The translations under genes and the position numbers were made by a program. A stretch of DNA of 12,902 nucleotides from a virus (taxonomy: Duplodnaviria; Heunggongvirae; Uroviricota; Caudoviricetes): IMG/VR virus record IMGVR_UViG_2541047884_000004; one strand, given 5' to 3'. Below are positions 5,759 through 12,902 of this stretch, in pieces. Below the pieces are notes generated by a model that saw only the letters and a list, made by a program, of their open reading frames with translations, had not been told where the DNA came from and ran no database searches. The first letter of the stretch is position 1; each line of letters opens with the position of its first letter.

Positions 5759-6456
5759 ACACTTGCTCCTTTCAGTCCTAACTTAGCTTTAATTTCTGCG
5801 ATCTTCGCCAGCGCCTGAACACGATTTAGAGGTCTGCCGCCCATGACAGGAAGTTGTTTTACTGGTTCAGGTATCGTCTCACCACGGTTAATTCGCGCTG
5901 TCATACAGGTCAGTTCATCGGCAGCCTTGCGTCGTAATTCCGCGTCAGTCAGCGCATTGGCCCGCATGTTCTGGTACAGGTTGGTAACCAGCCAGTAGTG
6001 CGCGTTCGATTTCCACGGATAAGACTCTGCATCCGGATACAGGCCTCGCTTCCGGCAATACTCGTAAACCATATCAACCAGCTCGCTGACGTTTGGCAGT
6101 CCGGCGATAACGGATGCTTCTTCCCGGCACCATGCAACAAACTGCCCGGGTGATGGCAGAAATGGTCGATTCTGCCGACGGGCTACGCGCATTCCTGCGT
6201 TAACCTGTTCCATTGTGGTGATCCCGTTTTCCCGGAAAGCCAGAACCCACTGGCGGCGGATTTCGTTCAGTTCGTTCTGGTCACGGTTAGCCAGACTCGC
6301 CGGGAAAGTTGCCAGTAACTGGCTGAACACACCGTTGATGATCTGCGCTACCTGCTGTACCTGCGGCTTTTCGTCGTACTGTTCCGGCATGTTGTTGGCG
6401 ATCCGACGCATCTGCTCACGGTCAAAATTAACCATCTGTGCGGCGATGTTTTTCAT
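5755..6456 (-). CDS. P: Replication protein P (DnaB helicase loader)
   Basis: 233 aa MKNIAAQMVNFDREQMRRIANNMPEQYDEKPQVQQVAQIINGVFSQLL...; near-identical to lambda P as recalled. ATG 6456 overlaps the O stop. Confidence 0.95.
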   Translation of the reverse strand: MKNIAAQMVNFDREQMRRIANNMPEQYDEKPQVQQVAQIINGVFSQLLATFPASLANRDQNELNEIRRQWVLAFRENGITTMEQVNAGMRVARRQNRPFLPSPGQFVAWCREEASVIAGLPNVSELVDMVYEYCRKRGLYPDAESYPWKSNAHYWLVTNLYQNMRANALTDAELRRKAADELTCMTARINRGETIPEPVKQLPVMGGRPLNRVQALAKIAEIKAKLGLKGASV

Positions 6457-6801
6457 AAATCCACCCCGTAAATCCAGTCAGTGTTTGTCAGGTCGAGTTT
6501 TGGTTTGCAGGCTGTCACACCTGCCTGTTGCTTGTTACGGTTGATTTCGAGCTGGGTCCACTTGTCGCGGAGTTTGGCCGGGCTCAGCACGTTACCGGAC
6601 CAGAAGTTGTCCTGGCATGCCCAGCGGAACAGTACACACATGTCGCGATGGTTACGTCCGTCACGTTCACGCATCAGGCGGATATCGTTAGCCCACCCTG
6701 CAAAATTCGGTTTTCTGGCTGATGGCGCGATGGTCTTCACCATGTCAAACATCCATTCTGCGGCGGTCAGGTCTTCTGCTGTCCCCCACTTGCTGCCGCT
6801 C
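6453..6801 (-). pseudogene. O: Replication initiator O, C-terminal (P-interacting) fragment, separated from its 5' part by an IS insertion
   Basis: In-frame translation from the IS boundary reads SGSKWGTAEDLTAAEWMFDMVKTIAPSARKPNFAGWANDIRLMRERDG...GVDL, matching the lambda O C-terminus. No promoter or start of its own; the upstream boundary is the IS end at 6802. Confidence 0.9.
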
Positions 6802-6855
6802 TGAACCGCCCCGGGAATCCTGGAGACTAAACTTCCTGAGAAAGAGGTAAACAGG

Positions 6856-7182
6856 ATGACTAAAAATACTCGTTTTTCCCCCGAAGTCCGTCAACGGGCA
6901 GTCCGTATGGTTCTGGAAAGTCAGAGCGAATATGACTCACAATGGGCGACAATTTGTTCCATTGCTCCAAAGATTGGCTGTACGCCGGAGACTCTGCGTG
7001 TCTGGGTTCGCCAGCATGAGCGGGATACCGGGGGCGGTGATGGAGGGCTCACCACCGCTGAACGTCAGCGTCTGAAAGAGCTGGAACGTGAAAATCGTGA
7101 ACTGCGCCGCAGTAACGATATCCTTCGCCAGGCTTCCGCTTATTTTGCGAAGGCGGAGTTCGACCGCCTCTGGAAAAAATGA
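6856..7182 (+). CDS. IS3-family transposase OrfA (HTH/leucine-zipper part)
   Basis: 108 aa [55 protein letters not shown]...; ends in an A6 run (7174..7179) where the -1 frame OrfB begins. Confidence 0.9.
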
Positions 7183-8069
7183 TGCCACTGCTGGATAAGC
7201 TGCGTGAGCAGTACGGGGTCGGACCGCTATGCAGCGAACTGCATATTGCCCCGTCAACGTATTACCACTGTCAGCAACAGCGACATCATCCGGATAAACG
7301 CAGTGCCCGTGCGCAGCGCGATGACTGGCTGAAGAAAGAGATACAGCGCGTATACGATGAAAATCACAAGGTATACGGTGTGCGTAAAGTCTGGCGTCAG
7401 TTGTTACGGGAAGGTATCAGAGTGGCCAGATGCACTGTGGCACGTCTCATGGCGGTTATGGGACTTGCCGGTGTTCTCCGGGGTAAAAAGGTCCGTACGA
7501 CCATCAGCCGGAAAGCCGTTGCCGCAGGCGACCGCGTAAACCGTCAGTTCGTGGCAGAACGACCTGACCAGCTGTGGGTGGCTGATTTTACTTACGTCAG
7601 CACATGGCGGGGCTTCGTCTATGTGGCGTTCATCATTGATGTGTTTGCCGGATACATCGTGGGGTGGCGGGTCTCATCGTCCATGGAAACGACATTCGTG
7701 CTGGATGCACTGGAGCAGGCGTTATGGGCCCGTCGACCGTCCGGCACGGTCCATCACAGTGATAAAGGTTCTCAGTATGTATCGCTGGCCTACACACAGC
7801 GGCTTAAGGAAGCCGGATTACTGGCATCAACAGGAAGTACAGGCGACTCGTATGACAACGCGATGGCGGAGAGCATCAATGGTCTTTACAAAGCGGAGGT
7901 AATACACCGTAAGAGCTGGAAAAACCGTGCAGAAGTGGAACTGGCCACACTCACGTGGGTGGACTGGTATAACAATCGACGATTGCTGGAAAGGCTGGGC
8001 CATACTCCTCCGGCAGAAGCAGAAAAAGCTTATTATGCTTCCATCGGAAACGATGATCTGGCAGCCTGA
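7179..8069 (+). CDS. IS3-family transposase OrfB (DDE catalytic domain); OrfAB fusion expected by programmed -1 frameshift
   Basis: 296 aa with an rve-type integrase core (…[31 protein letters not shown]… [11 protein letters not shown] … [17 protein letters not shown]…). Overlaps OrfA in the -1 frame at the A-run. Confidence 0.9.
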
Positions 8070-8111
8070 GTTCACAGATAAAACACTCTCCAGGAAACCC
8101 GGGGCGGTTCA

Positions 8112-8665
8112 CTCTGAATTGCAGCATCCGGTTTCACCACAGAAAGGTCGTTTTCTGGCTGGTCAGAGGATTCGCCAGAATTCTCTGACGAATAATCTTT
8201 TCTTTTTTCTTTTGTAATAGTGTCTTTTGTGTCCCCCTGTTTTGAGGGATAGCAATCCCCCAATTTGAGGGATGTTTTATCCCTCGTTTTAGGGGATTTT
8301 CCCTCGTTTTGAGGGATACACCATTCTGAGATGTTTTTATTTGGTCCAAACATGCCGCCTTGCTGCTTGATAATATTCATTCTGACGAGTTCTAACTTGG
8401 CTTCATTGCACCGTTTGACGGGTAACTTTGTAATCTCGCTAAGTTGAGAATCGGTGATTCTGTCCATTGGTTTATTCCATCCATAGGTTTTACGCAGAAT
8501 GGCAAGCAGCACTTTAAACTGTCGCTTGGTCAGATCTGCGCCTGAATAAGCCTCAAGCAGCATATTTGATAGTCTGGCGTAACCATCATCGAGATCTGCC
8601 ACATTACGCTCCTGTTTGGCAAAGTTACCTCTGCAGAAGTTGAGTATTTTTGCTGTATTTGTCAT
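8112..8665 (-). pseudogene. O: Replication initiator O, N-terminal (ori-binding) fragment, truncated by the IS insertion
   Basis: ATG 8665 with AGGAG RBS; MTNTAKILNFCRGNFAKQERNVADLDDGYARLSNMLLEAYSGADLTKRQFKVLLAILRKTYGWNKPMDRITDSQL... matches lambda O. The reading frame runs into the IS end and stops at 8072 after 15 IS-encoded residues. Confidence 0.9.
8185..8317. repeat. ori-lambda-type replication origin inside O: four iterons plus adjacent AT-rich region
   Basis: Four ~18-19 bp near-palindromic repeats of the TCCCTC-N-GAGGGA type (about 8232..8250, 8255..8273, 8279..8297, 8300..8317), flanked by the AT-rich stretch 8185..8231 (tgacgaataatcttttcttttttcttttgtaatagtg). Confidence 0.75.
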
Positions 8666-8697
8666 AATGACTCCTGTGGATTGATCCAGTAATGACC

Positions 8698-8994
8698 TCA
8701 GAATTCCATCTGGATTTGTTCAGAACGCTCGGTTGCCGCCGGGCGTTTTTTATTGGTGAGTCCATCAAGCGCATACTTAAAAGCCCTGCTAATCGGACTG
8801 ATGTCTGATGCCATTCCGAAAGCACACAAGACCGAAGCAATAAATCTCCAGTCCGTTCTGCTTATCTTCGATTCATGACAGCCAATCATCTTTGCCAGAC
8901 CGCGCTGGGTAATAGCTGACAGATTGATAAGTAAATCTGTTTCTGCGCGATCAACGTCACGCTGTGATAGTTTGCTGTAACTTGTTCTTTCCAT
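8698..8994 (-). CDS. cII: CII-like transcriptional activator
   Basis: 98 aa; C-terminal LTNKKRPAATERSEQIQMEF matches lambda CII as recalled, the N-terminal two thirds are divergent. Position between cro and O. Confidence 0.8.
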   Translation of the reverse strand: MERTSYSKLSQRDVDRAETDLLINLSAITQRGLAKMIGCHESKISRTDWRFIASVLCAFGMASDISPISRAFKYALDGLTNKKRPAATERSEQIQMEF

Positions 8995-9079
8995 TTCTTA
9001 AGATTTCCAATAGTGAATAGTTAGTTGAAAGGTATGCGTGGAAACGCATATGGCCTTAGTTGGTCAGATATCTTGGAAC

Positions 9080-9124
9080 TCGCTTTTCAGCGACGTAGGA
9101 CGAATGTCCGTTGTTACAAAGAGC
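9080..9124 (-). promoter_or_regulatory. nutR-like site: boxA, spacer hairpin, boxB hairpin with GAAA loop
   Basis: Minus-strand reading GCTCTTTGTAACAA (boxA-like, 9124..9111), hairpin GGAC-attc-GTCC (9109..9098), hairpin TCGCT-GAAA-AGCGA (9093..9080). It lies just after the cro stop and has the same architecture as the site upstream of N. Confidence 0.5.
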
Positions 9125-9135
9125 GGATCCGCTTA

Positions 9136-9351
9136 TTAAGCGGCTTTGTGTTCCGGCGGGAACACGTCATCAAGACTGACTTTTGCGCCTAACTTGTTTA
9201 GGCACGCAACAAGAGCACGGCATGTTTTAAGGTCTGGGAAGCGACGACCAGATTCCCAATGTCCGATAGCTCCCTGTGTGCATCCAACTGCCTTAGCAAG
9301 TGTTGTTTGAGAGATATTCAGTGACTCTCGATATTTTCGTAGGTTGCTCAT
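9136..9351 (-). CDS. cro: Cro-like repressor (HTH, XRE family)
   Basis: 71 aa from ATG 9351 (MSNLRKYRESLNISQTTLAKAVGCTQGAIGHWESGRRFPDLKTCRALVACLNKLGAKVSLDDVFPPEHKAA), preceded by GGAGGG; divergent from cI. The longer ORF-track form would overlap the operator region and is rejected. Confidence 0.75.
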   Translation of the reverse strand: MSNLRKYRESLNISQTTLAKAVGCTQGAIGHWESGRRFPDLKTCRALVACLNKLGAKVSLDDVFPPEHKAA

Positions 9352-9462
9352 ATGCCCTCCATAGTAAACACGAATAAAAAAATACAATATGTACTTTGCG
9401 AATACAAGTAAAAATACACATTGTGCATGGATGGTTCCAGTACAGAGCGTAATAATAAGGAC
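9352..9462. promoter_or_regulatory. OR region: divergent pR (for cro) and pRM (for cI) with TACA/TGTA-type operator repeats
   Basis: Candidate pR on the minus strand: TTGTAT (9407..9402), 17-bp spacer, TATTTT (9384..9379). Operator-like near-palindromes include TACAATATGTA (9383..9393) and TACAAGTA (9403..9410). The motif at 9382..9397 is shared with the pL region. Candidate pRM -10 TAATAA (9450..9455) lies 7 bp before the cI ATG. Confidence 0.55.
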
Positions 9463-10122
9463 ATGAAAATGAAATGGTATGAACTGGCTAGATCCAGAAT
9501 GAAAGAGCTCGGCATAACTCAAGAGAAGTTAGCCGAAGAGCTAGGTATGACGCAGGGTGGGATTGGACACTGGTTGCGCGGATCTCGTCATCCATCTCTT
9601 AGTGATATTGGTGTGGTGTTTAAATACCTTGGTATTGATAACATATCATTCAACCACGACGGGACATTTTCACCTGTTGGCGAATACTCATCGGCCCCAG
9701 TTAAAAAACAATATGAGTACCCTGTTTTTTCTCATGTTCAGGCTGGGATGTTCTCTCCAGAACTCAGAACCTTTACCAAAGGCGATGCGGAGAGATTGGT
9801 AAGCACAACCAAAAAAGCCAGTGACTCTGCATTCTGGCTTGAGGTTGAAGGTAACTCAATGACCGCACCAACAGGTTCCAAACCCAGCTTTCCTGACGGG
9901 ATGTTAATTCTGGTTGACCCTGAGCAAGCTGTTGAGCCCGGCGATTTCTGCATAGCCAGACTTGGTGGTGATGAATTTACCTTCAAGAAACTGATCAGGG
10001 ATAGCGGTCAGGTGTTTCTACAGCCACTAAACCCACAATACCCAATGATCCCATGCAATGAGAGTTGTTCCGTTGTGGGGAAAGTTATCGCCAGCCAATG
10101 GCCTGAAGAGACGTTTGGGTGA
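9463..10122 (+). CDS. cI: CI prophage repressor: HTH N-terminal domain plus S24 (LexA-like) autocleavage C-terminal domain
   Basis: C-terminal ~150 aa ([71 protein letters not shown]...[10 protein letters not shown]) match lambda CI as recalled, including the GNSM serine and catalytic Lys regions. N-terminal DNA-binding domain differs from lambda. Start taken at ATG 9463 (ATG 9469 also possible). Confidence 0.9.
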
Positions 10123-10161
10123 TGAAACCACTTTTATCTACAATTTACAGGGCGGTAAACA

Positions 10162-10719
10162 TTGGCAAAAATAGATGATTATCAGCCAAGCCAAGTAGAA
10201 GTTGATAAAGTACTTTATTGTAAAAAAATAGTTAACTTTTCTGGCGTTAAATGGAAACAGAAACCAAGTCGCTCTGATATGTGGCTACAAGCCCATATCA
10301 TCCCCTTGGATGAGGATTGTATACCTATACAAGGGCTAAAGTTTGAACTGAAATGGAAACCAGATCAGGATTCAGAACCTGATGACCCGATTTCTTACCC
10401 TAAAATAAATATTATTGCTTTCTATCATAACAAGAGGGTTTTCGCGGTAGATACCTATCACTTTGACAAACACACGAATAGTTACAAGGTCGATCATCCG
10501 AAGTACCAAGATATCATTTACGGTGCTCACTACCATGTATACTATGAAGAAGCTGGATACTATAGTGATAGAATAGCGTTTCCAATCGAAGATGACATAA
10601 ACCCAGATGGCCTGGTAGGGTATTGGAATTACTTCTGTAAACATCTGAACATAACTTACTCTGGGAGAATACCTTTACCGCTTGAAGATGAGTCGGGGCA
10701 AATGGGGTTTGGAATATGA
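10162..10719 (+). CDS. Hypothetical protein, 185 aa, no recognised family; first gene of a two-gene cassette at the rexAB-equivalent locus
   Basis: Long ORF in AT-rich DNA immediately downstream of cI. First in-frame start is TTG at 10162 (preceded by AGGGCGG); no in-frame ATG until codon 40. Hydrophilic, rich in aromatic and acidic residues, no obvious TM segment. Confidence 0.6.
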   Translation: MAKIDDYQPSQVEVDKVLYCKKIVNFSGVKWKQKPSRSDMWLQAHIIPLDEDCIPIQGLKFELKWKPDQDSEPDDPISYPKINIIAFYHNKRVFAVDTYHFDKHTNSYKVDHPKYQDIIYGAHYHVYYEEAGYYSDRIAFPIEDDINPDGLVGYWNYFCKHLNITYSGRIPLPLEDESGQMGFGI

Positions 10720-11468
10720 TGTGCGCAACAGTGATCTCACAACTAGGTTTCGAATGCCATCCAATAGGCAAGACCTTGAGAATTATCAGTCCATTCACTT
10801 ACTGTGATGATGGAGAGCATGTCGGTGCCTTTATCCGTGAAGTCAATGGTAGGTATTTAGTTAGTGACAGATGCGATGCCTTAATGAATATGGAGGCAAG
10901 AGGGATCTCGCTTACCAAAAAACGACTTGATGAGATACGACAATTACTGCTTAAAGAAGGCGCAGAACTCAATGCTCGAGGAGAAATCATTGCTTGGGCA
11001 ACAGAAAAGGATGTCGGTGCGATTACATCGAACATAATTAGAGCTGGTATACTCGCATCAACTTTGTCGTTAGACTGGTATCAGCCAGTTCAAGCTGAAA
11101 AGTTTGAAAGTATGGTTATTGATTATCTATATCACACAGAGCTTAGAGACGCACTTTCTCTTCGTGAAAACGTATATGGCTTGAGTGGACATCAAATTAC
11201 CGTCCCTGTAACAATAAAAACCGACATACCTAAATACGTTTTTACATCAAGCGTGAAACACGGAGGAAGCTGGAATAGTGCTTACTCATTGCTTGGGAAA
11301 CTAATTGATCTTAAAGCTTCAAGTGAGGAGTATAACAACAGATTTGTTGTTATAGACAGCGAAGCAATTGGTGATCAAATGCAACAACTCTCCTTACTCT
11401 TCCATGAATCAAGCCAAGTTCTACCATTCTCCAAAAGAGAGACTTGGGTTAAGAGACTTGCAGCATAA
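10716..11468 (+). CDS. Hypothetical protein, 250 aa, no recognised family; second gene of the cassette
   Basis: ATG 10716 overlaps the stop of the upstream gene (ATGATG...TGA, typical translational coupling). Same strand as cI, followed within 6 nt by an intrinsic terminator. No TM segments apparent. Confidence 0.65.
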   Translation: MMCATVISQLGFECHPIGKTLRIISPFTYCDDGEHVGAFIREVNGRYLVSDRCDALMNMEARGISLTKKRLDEIRQLLLKEGAELNARGEIIAWATEKDVGAITSNIIRAGILASTLSLDWYQPVQAEKFESMVIDYLYHTELRDALSLRENVYGLSGHQITVPVTIKTDIPKYVFTSSVKHGGSWNSAYSLLGKLIDLKASSEEYNNRFVVIDSEAIGDQMQQLSLLFHESSQVLPFSKRETWVKRLAA

Positions 11469-11473
11469 TACAA

Positions 11474-11499
11474 CCCGGCCTCAGCGCCGGGTTTTCTTT
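11474..11499 (+). terminator. Intrinsic terminator ending the cI-cassette transcript (tIMM-equivalent)
   Basis: cccggc / ctcag / gccggg stem-loop followed by GTTTTCTTTG. Confidence 0.6.
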
Positions 11500-11682
11500 G
11501 CCTCACGTTCGCCCACCTAAAAACACATAACCAATTATATTTATTGAAAAATAAATAGATGCAACCCACTAAACCACGCAATTCTGATCTCTCCTTACAT
11601 CGCCGAGGCAATACATCCACGCTAAAAAACAACACTATTAAATACAAAGCGTTATAAAAAACCACGCCAACTTACAACAAAT

Positions 11683-11725
11683 TGTATTGATCTTGTAAAG
11701 TACATATCGTACTATTTAACCGTCA
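11683..11725 (+). promoter_or_regulatory. pL promoter with overlapping OL operator repeats
   Basis: TTGATC (11697..11702), 17-bp spacer, TACTAT (11720..11725). Operator-like inverted repeats TACAACAAATTGTA (11683..11696), TGTAAAGTACA (11704..11714) and AGTACATATCGTACT (11709..11723). The 16-mer AAAGTACATATCGTAC (11707..11722) recurs at OR with two mismatches. Confidence 0.5.
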
Positions 11726-11761
11726 GCAGGACGCTGGAAGCCAAATGGAACAGACTGGCAG

Positions 11762-11806
11762 GCTCTTTAAACAACGTCGACTCTCGACTACGTGGCTGAA
11801 AAGCCA
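11762..11806 (+). promoter_or_regulatory. nutL-like site: boxA, spacer hairpin, boxB hairpin with GAAA loop
   Basis: GCTCTTTAAACAA (11762..11774), hairpin GTCGA-ctc-TCGAC (11776..11788), hairpin TGGCT-GAAA-AGCCA (11793..11806), about 100 nt upstream of N. Confidence 0.5.
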
Positions 11807-11904
11807 GATCACCCAACCACATAAGCTGTGGGATGCAATGCCGAAGCAACCGTCTCAGGAGGAGCTTCGAGATTGCATCGCCAAAGTTTATTCGGGAGGA
11901 ATCC

Positions 11905-12177
11905 ATGTCCAGAAAAACAGAATTTAAAGGCACCGCAGCTTCTCGCCGTAGAGCTCGTCGCGCAAATCTGCAAAGTCAGGAGGCGATCAGCTCCGACAAG
12001 CTACACAGGCCAACCCCTTCACGAGTGGTCTTGCAATGCAAGCTCAAACCAGCAATGAGAGCAGAAGTGATAACTCTGACAACGTTGACCAGAAAATATG
12101 AAGGTTCAACTTGTCTTCCGAACGTAGCTCTTTACGCGGCAGGCTACCGGAAATCAAAACAACTGACGGCGAGATGA
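11905..12177 (+). CDS. N: N-family transcription antiterminator (P22 gp24-like)
   Basis: 90 aa from ATG 11905 with GGGAGGA RBS. N-terminal arginine-rich motif (GTAASRRRARRANLQ); C-terminal LPNVALYAAGYRKSKQLTAR closely resembles the P22 gene 24 protein C-terminus as recalled. First gene after pL/nutL. Confidence 0.75.
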   Translation: MSRKTEFKGTAASRRRARRANLQSQEAISSDKLHRPTPSRVVLQCKLKPAMRAEVITLTTLTRKYEGSTCLPNVALYAAGYRKSKQLTAR

Positions 12178-12193
12178 TAAATTCATTTGCTAA

Positions 12194-12775
12194 TTACTTG
12201 TTTTTGCCATGCTTATCCTGAGCGATAAGTTCATCCATAAGGCTGTCTGCCTTCCCGGCAAACCTAATGTAGCACTCATGTCTATAGCTTTCAGGGATAA
12301 CGAAACGGTCGGTATCAGGATATCCAACAGCAGGAGGCCTTCGAACGAGGAGTCCTTTTTTGAGCAATGAAATTGATTCATGAGCGCCCTTTTCCGTTTG
12401 TAGCTGGTTATTAGCGGCTACAGCGAATGCCAAATACGCTCTTTCTCCAAGAGTTAACGAATCAAACAAATCTTGCACATATTTTTCTTCTTTAGATTTG
12501 CGCTTCTGAGCAGCGAATACCTCAATTCTTTCAGTCACAGCGTGATAAGCGGAATTAACAACGCCGTTAAGCACATAGCTAACGCAAAACAACAGGATGT
12601 AATACATCCAGTAATGAGGAAGGATTTCTGGATTATGCAGGTTTATCCATTCTTTTACGCTTACCGGCATAACAATAATCAATATGATCAGGATGATTAG
12701 CATATGAATCAACTGTTTAAGTGTCATTCCTTGCAGGAAAAAATGCATTAGTTCCTGCCACCATGAGTTGTTCAT
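12194..12775 (-). CDS. sieB: Superinfection exclusion protein B
   Basis: 193 aa from ATG 12775 (MNNSWWQELMHFFLQGMTLKQLIHMLIILIILIIVMPVSVKEW...), hydrophobic N-terminal TM region; near-identical to lambda SieB as recalled. Convergent with N. Confidence 0.85.
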   Translation of the reverse strand: MNNSWWQELMHFFLQGMTLKQLIHMLIILIILIIVMPVSVKEWINLHNPEILPHYWMYYILLFCVSYVLNGVVNSAYHAVTERIEVFAAQKRKSKEEKYVQDLFDSLTLGERAYLAFAVAANNQLQTEKGAHESISLLKKGLLVRRPPAVGYPDTDRFVIPESYRHECYIRFAGKADSLMDELIAQDKHGKNK

Positions 12776-12809
12776 CGGCGTTTCTCTTTTGCTCTCTGTA
12801 GGGGTGAAT

Positions 12810-12902
12810 TGAACCGCCCCGGGTTTCCTGGAGAGTGTTTTATCTGTGAACTCAGGCTGCCAGATCATCGTTTCCGATGGAAGCATAATAAGCTTTTTCT
12901 GC
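12810..12902 (-). mobile_element. End of a second IS3-family (IS629/IS1203-like) copy, inverted relative to the first; continues beyond the window
   Basis: 12810..12902 is the reverse complement of 8019..8111, the right end of the complete copy including its terminal inverted repeat and the 3' end of OrfB. Confidence 0.88.

Follow-up and report, generated by a model that had tools for sequence, protein, structure and literature searches.

The window, as we term the whole 12,902-nt stretch analysed here, ends in the IRR end of a second copy of the insertion sequence IS629. This end is very probably the scar of an IS629-anchored deletion that joined the leader of sieB to the middle of the integrase gene, int, and removed the sieB promoter together with the genes ral to xis. 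In the reading that we propose, one breakpoint would lie 4 nt upstream of the sieB RNA start and the other within int, next to icd, and the deletion would have taken the complete promoter along with these early-left genes. Combined with the IS629 insertion in the replication gene O, this would have produced a grounded prophage that is unable to replicate or excise and that keeps cI immunity, a candidate defence cassette, N, sieB, the lysis genes and a porin gene; the two inverted IS629 copies could recombine, leaving regulation unaffected. The whole is ordinary IS629-driven prophage decay, and it is of little importance beyond this strain, adding one more way in which IS629 grounds a lambdoid prophage.

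The prophage and its IS629 elements

The lambdoid prophage is read from right to left. Its minus strand carries the genes for lysozyme, holin and an OmpC-like porin, followed by Q, rusA, the nin genes, P, O, cII and cro. The plus strand carries cI, a two-gene cassette and N, after which comes sieB on the minus strand. Coordinates are summarized in Table 1.

Table 1. Features of the window, with window positions and strand
Feature	Position	Strand	Remarks
Gene O, 3' part	6453..6801	-	collinear with the 5' part; O is intact in ATCC 25922
IS629 copy 1, full length, 1310 bp	6802..8111	+	inserted in lambda-type replication gene O
Transposase genes orfA (6856-7182) and orfB (7179-8069)	6856..8069	+	overlap at a run of A, GGAAAAAATGA
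Gene O, 5' part, truncated by copy 1	8112..8665	-	PF04492; four ori iterons at 8234-8318
Block between the inverted IS629 copies, 4698 bp	8112..12809		O', cII, cro, cI, two-gene cassette, N, sieB
cI-type repressor gene	9421..10122	+	HTH and Peptidase_S24
Two-gene cassette	10162..11468	+	at the rexAB position, between cI and N
sieB, intact ORF of 193 codons	12194..12775	-	Pfam PF14163, E=2.5e-22
Remaining sieB upstream sequence: 4 nt (ATTC) and 30-nt leader	12776..12809	-	RNA-start equivalent is the A at 12805
IS629 copy 2, terminal 93 nt	12810..12902	-	IRR end (IS positions 1310 to 1218), opposite in orientation to copy 1

The 185-aa protein of the cassette gave a weak match to PADLOC PDC-M24A (E=1.2e-3) and a match below cutoff to Pfam DUF6978, and its 250-aa protein matched PDC-M24B (E=5e-10) and DUF1828. 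Its resemblance to PDC-M24, a candidate system of PADLOC, is weak, and the two genes are a candidate for a prophage defence pair that the immunity block has kept. The repressor gene is intact in the window, in FY26 and in ATCC 25922, and it is split in two in CFT073 and in Nissle 1917 (positions 11922-12623 of the Nissle 1917 extract and 17428-18129 of the extract labelled L006).

Copy 1 has 25-nt terminal inverted repeats starting TGAACCGCCCCGGG, with IRL and IRR matching at 23 of the 25 positions, and is flanked by a CTC target duplication (6799-6801 and 8112-8114). The 5' ORF of O runs on into the element and ends at 8072. Over the full 1310 bp, copy 1 is 99.5% identical to elements annotated as 'IS3 family IS629' in Stx phage records, which served as the reference for the name instead of ISfinder's own. 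Pfam domains are HTH_Tnp_1 in orfA and HTH_21 and rve in orfB; an ALIL frameshift pseudoknot lies at 7137-7253 (Rfam RF01497, 120 bits), and the RefSeq annotation of the transposase in relatives reads 'programmed frameshift'. The element is thus a member of the IS3 family and of IS629 by its length, its TG...CA terminal repeats (TGAAC...GTTCA ends), its two ORFs with a -1 frameshift and ALIL, its 3-bp duplication and its near identity to annotated copies. IS629 is an element of E. coli prophages best known from O157:H7, with a preference for prophages, where it causes inactivation and deletions (PMC9943667). The present case differs in its host, an icd-integrated lambdoid prophage common to ExPEC and avian strains (CFT073, UTI89, APEC), and in that copy 2 appears to be a deletion junction without a duplication. 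The absence of a duplication at copy 2 marks a rearrangement junction and is no argument against IS629 membership.

A second copy of the same IS, in opposite orientation, had been proposed for the window end in an earlier note made from the letters alone, and a perfect inverted arm bears this out: segments 8019-8111 and 12810-12902, of 93 nt each, are 100% complementary at a distance of 4698 nt, which cannot be chance. The distance of 35 bp given there between IS and sieB was likewise right, with 34 nt separating the terminus at 12810 from the ATG at 12775-12773 (minus strand). The orfB stop codon of copy 2 would be at 12852-12854. The truncated O protein that continues into copy 1 is specific to this insertion, and searching for exact matches to it led to the scaffold from which the window comes. 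The window is one contig of the draft scaffold KE701661.1 (GCA_000460295.1; scaffold-piece positions 5764-18665), with N runs on both sides, and it stops inside copy 2 because this contig broke inside the repeat; for annotation, a 'second copy at the window end' is to be read as a contig break within a repeat.

Past the end of the window the scaffold continues with a gap of 1230 N, then 11 nt of the IRL end (GGGGCGGTTCA), a truncated int (int'), icd, rluE and onward, and the stretch after the gap is 100% identical to FY26 over 4533 bp. The IS sequence expected to be missing amounts to 1206 nt, in agreement with the size of the gap. In the closed genomes FY26 and NCTC11151, a full 1310-bp IS, 100% identical to copy 1, occupies the identical sieB junction, and in a second draft assembly the 4.7-kb block forms a separate contig with ~89 nt of IS end on each side. 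The earlier note had let its reading depend on copy 2 not being a mere fragment. The 93 nt seen are identical to copy 1, and for the rest the gap size, the IRL end past the gap and the full copies in closed relatives agree, so that copy 2 is almost certainly full length; its interior is the scaffold gap, and its link to int' rests on the scaffolding and on the same junctions in the closed relatives.

Beyond window position 1, the scaffold (positions 18666-20594 of the piece) shows an N run followed by the first 93 nt of another IS629 copy. The site of this third copy is TonB/iss, as in FY26 (TSD GCGC there), and the prophage carries at least three IS629 copies.

Origin of the copy at the sieB leader

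Copy 2 is flanked by AAT on one side and TAT on the other, and hence has no target duplication. We ran the comparison with IS-free relatives that the earlier note had asked for, and found that in those without copy 2 (ATCC 25922, CFT073 and KE51) sieB is followed by ral, cIII, kil, gam, bet, exo, further early genes, xis, an intact int and icd. The int gene beyond copy 2 is 5'-truncated, and its breakpoint falls inside the intact int of ATCC 25922. Since ral to int separate sieB from icd in these relatives, and since the int breakpoint is internal, the comparison indicates that a deletion has brought the sieB leader up to the middle of int, with copy 2 marking the junction. The lost stretch, from ral into the 5' part of int, measures ~8-10 kb. 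The deletion could be an adjacent deletion anchored at an IS end, or the product of recombination between two direct copies. The intermediate, a simple IS629 insertion in int or at the sieB promoter, was found in none of the complete genomes. IS629 in the phage-21-type int of EC38 (AF017626), although 100% identical as an element, was rejected as a precursor of the int' junction, as it lies at another site (TSD ATA) in another type of int.

Three other origins of copy 2 were weighed against a deletion junction. The earlier note implied a simple, independent insertion 35 bp upstream of sieB with the left arm of the prophage intact beyond it. Its placement of the IS terminus at the leader holds, and the clean abutment of the two would suit an insertion, as would the fact that in ATCC 25922 a different IS3-family element inserted at this very nucleotide, with an AAT duplication. 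However, int' rather than ral lies beyond the gap, the target duplication is absent, ral to xis are missing from all closed genomes with this junction, and among complete genomes there is none in which IS629 at this site is followed by ral. A simple insertion is already contradicted by these observations, and we consider it extremely unlikely. A solo IS629-end remnant in place of a full element, which would provide no substrate for recombination, is very unlikely. Two 171-bp IS629 right-end remnants do occur at this locus in Nissle 1917, and the window itself shows 93 nt only; against this stand the IRL end that follows a gap of nearly the expected size and the full copies at identical junctions in FY26 and NCTC11151. 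A contig break ~90 nt into a repeat is moreover typical of a multi-copy IS, and the block contig of the second assembly likewise breaks at both ends.

The third origin, that both copies and the block form a composite transposon which moved the immunity region as a unit, has next to no probability. In its favor are the 4.7 kb held between two identical IS ends, the separate contig bounded by IS ends in the other assembly, and the precedent of the citrate transposon Tn3411, which is flanked by the IS629 relative IS3411. Copy 1, however, splits O with a CTC duplication of its own and leaves the two halves collinear, the outer flanks (CTC and TAT) differ, IRL lies at both outer ends, and the block has the native prophage order, identical to that of IS-free relatives. 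A composite-transposon origin is refuted, and with it the earlier suggestion of a composite unit. The collinear halves of O, together with the separate duplication at copy 1, also show that this assembly has the block in its ancestral orientation.

The sieB upstream region

The product of sieB is identical to P22 SieB at 159 of 193 residues (82%) and differs from that of IS-free relatives at one (N48 vs S48). It is a PF14163 protein encoded on the opposite strand in the usual sieB position, which lies between N and ral, and it has an internal, in-frame esc start equivalent (ATGCTAATC at 12703), the esc ATG being conserved relative to P22; a search for SieB in PADLOC gave no match. The locus resembles the sieB-esc locus of P22 and lambda, with its promoter PsieB, in position, sequence and esc start, and its leader is identical to that of empty-site relatives. 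It differs from that locus in that the -35 and -10 of PsieB are deleted, with the IS629 IRR end in their place, and in that the ral side, the normal continuation of the early-left transcript, is gone.

A literature search for the position of the sieB promoter yielded nothing useful, and the features of the P22 GenBank record were used instead: promoter 29690-29720 (TGTACC...TAAACT), RNA start at A 29727, ATG at 29758. Promoter and RNA start were transferred to the window by near-identical alignment, with CFT073 as the empty site; the promoter region hardly differs among P22, lambda and CFT073. Upstream of the RNA-start equivalent, 4 nt remain before the IS junction, both the -10 (TAAACT) and the -35 are absent, and the former -10 position reads GCGGTT. 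In the region ~31 nt or more upstream of the ATG, where the P22 record puts the sieB promoter, the window has the IS629 end. The earlier view that the native promoter was displaced or replaced is therefore upheld to the extent that, by identity to P22, the whole -35/-10 region appears to be gone.

That sieB might instead be driven from the IS end found no such backing. Consensus scans, which may miss weak or non-canonical outward promoters in an IS end, detected no sigma-70-like site in the IS end and leader or anywhere in the IS, and only read-through from the transposase gene is plausible. The orfB stop codon lies 76 nt from sieB, both genes are co-oriented, no outward terminator was found between them, and RNA folding of this stretch gave nothing remarkable (z = -1.26). 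We infer that sieB would lack transcription of its own and would be expressed only by weak IS629 read-through, with strongly reduced SieB and Esc as the most likely outcome. Thus, sieB has probably been silenced in a prophage that keeps cI immunity and the candidate defence cassette.

In IS3-family elements, the circle-junction promoter makes use of a -35 element in the right end. If the IS629 end provided an outward or hybrid promoter, sieB would be constitutive or stronger instead of silenced, and the shared orientation of IS and sieB is compatible with this. Transcripts crossing IS629 have been detected in an stx2::IS629 phage after mitomycin C induction of the prophage (PMC7430833), and because transcription through IS629 has been detected there, expression of sieB could exceed what we assume. 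Those transcripts represent read-through following induction, however, rather than transcription starting inside the IS; no -35/-10 combination reaches 9/12 in the IS end and leader, and the native -10 is replaced as described above. We accordingly regard a promoter in the IS629 end as unlikely, and favor reduced expression of sieB.

The sole sigma-70-like match near sieB (ATGACA-17-TATGCT, 12699-12727, minus strand) lies inside the gene, overlaps the esc start equivalent and is also present in the IS-free CFT073. An ATG at 12886 in the IS end is in frame with sieB, with no stop between them (12776-12886, minus strand), and ORF finders and the source annotation call a 'SieB' of 230-235 aa. This longer protein, with its IS-derived N-terminus, is probably an annotation artefact.

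The bracketed block and decay in related prophages

The inverted copies do bracket an immunity block of ~4.7 kb (ori, cII, cro, cI, the cassette, N and sieB) at 8112-12809, as the earlier note had it. Its further view of the pair as a substrate for inversion holds in that inverted, identical IS ends make inversion possible; for this pair it has not been observed. Only the ancestral orientation was seen, without an inverted isomer of 8112-12809, and no complete genome carries this pair; likewise, searches of complete E. coli genomes with the whole window and with the O junctions recovered no genome with this exact arrangement. KE51-type matches at '100% coverage' were rejected as instances of the same arrangement, since their IS629 copies lie at other sites (in O with TSD GTC, and in DUF1382). 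Inversion of this pair would alter none of the four IS-flank junctions, because both inner junctions are IRR ends; it would therefore have no regulatory consequence and would escape junction searches. The pair resembles known IS-mediated inversions in being an inverted pair of repeats, identical over the 93 nt seen and probably over the full 1.3 kb, and in that an inversion involving copy 2 is seen between NCTC11151 and FY26. It differs in that no isomer was found for the window's own pair and that no IS-flank junction would change.

Relatives that share the IS-int' junction make up a decay series. NCTC11151 and FY26 differ in a ~12-kb segment from iss to sieB with swapped outer flanks, indicating an inversion between inverted IS629 copies, with the sieB-side copy as one member of this other pair. 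A full IS followed in tandem by a partial one (positions 155-1310) is a further feature of NCTC11151. In APEC E12053 and EC21GDE043 the 3' part of O is joined directly to IS629 and int', and the whole immunity block is gone; int' is shorter in EC21GDE043, a sign that another deletion started from the opposite IS end. In BEN5202 almost nothing of the prophage is left. Judged from these relatives, the lineage has actually gone on to lose DNA by IS-anchored deletion and to undergo inversion between other pairs. Inactivation of genes and deletions in the E. coli genome are known effects of IS629 (PMC9943667). The window's prophage resembles the grounded prophages DLP12 and Rac in having lost int/xis and replication functions and in retaining immunity, exclusion, lysis and porin genes, and DLP12-type late genes (essD, rrrD, rzpD, quuD, rusA and ylcG) are annotated in its relatives. 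It differs from both in lineage and breakpoints, and in its graded decay among FY26, NCTC11151, E12053, EC21GDE043 and BEN5202.

The same few nucleotides are recurrently used by IS3-family ends in these related genomes, which is only mildly interesting. ATCC 25922 has an ISEc52-like IS3-family element of 1253 bp upstream of sieB (piece 15311-16563; ends TGAAGTGG..., TSD AAT). This element and the IS629 of the window end at the same nucleotide (window 12807-12810), 4 nt upstream of the sieB RNA-start equivalent; the same sieB promoter appears to have been knocked out at the same base by two unrelated IS elements. In Nissle 1917 (CP007799; piece 15302-15656), the left end of the ISEc52-like element upstream of sieB contains two IS629 right-end fragments of 171 bp each, arranged in tandem, and 9 nt of the sieB leader are missing, an arrangement that may be partly an assembly artefact.

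In gene O, three different IS629 junctions fall within 5 nt of GCCG-CTC-TGAATTGC (window 6795-6801 / 8112-8120). In the window the TSD is CTC and the IS lies on the plus strand, E12053 and EC21GDE043 read ...GCCG|IS(-), and FY26 and NCTC11151 read IS(-)|CTGAATT; the E12053 junction lies 3 nt outside the IRL end of the window copy, and that of FY26 2 nt outside its IRR end. This cluster beside an IS-end-like motif suggests a hot spot, or end-targeted events between copies. That the sieB site and the 5-nt stretch of O next to the motif are true hot spots for IS3-family ends is a tentative proposal, which we consider rather unlikely. If it were true, neighbouring IS629 copies would interact not just through homologous recombination but also through end-targeted strand transfer by the transposase, and the lineage would form a natural series for the dismantling of a prophage by IS3-family elements, with immunity and defence genes spared. 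In the extracts of relatives, the O junctions are at 10615 (FY26) and at 7740 (extract labelled L012).
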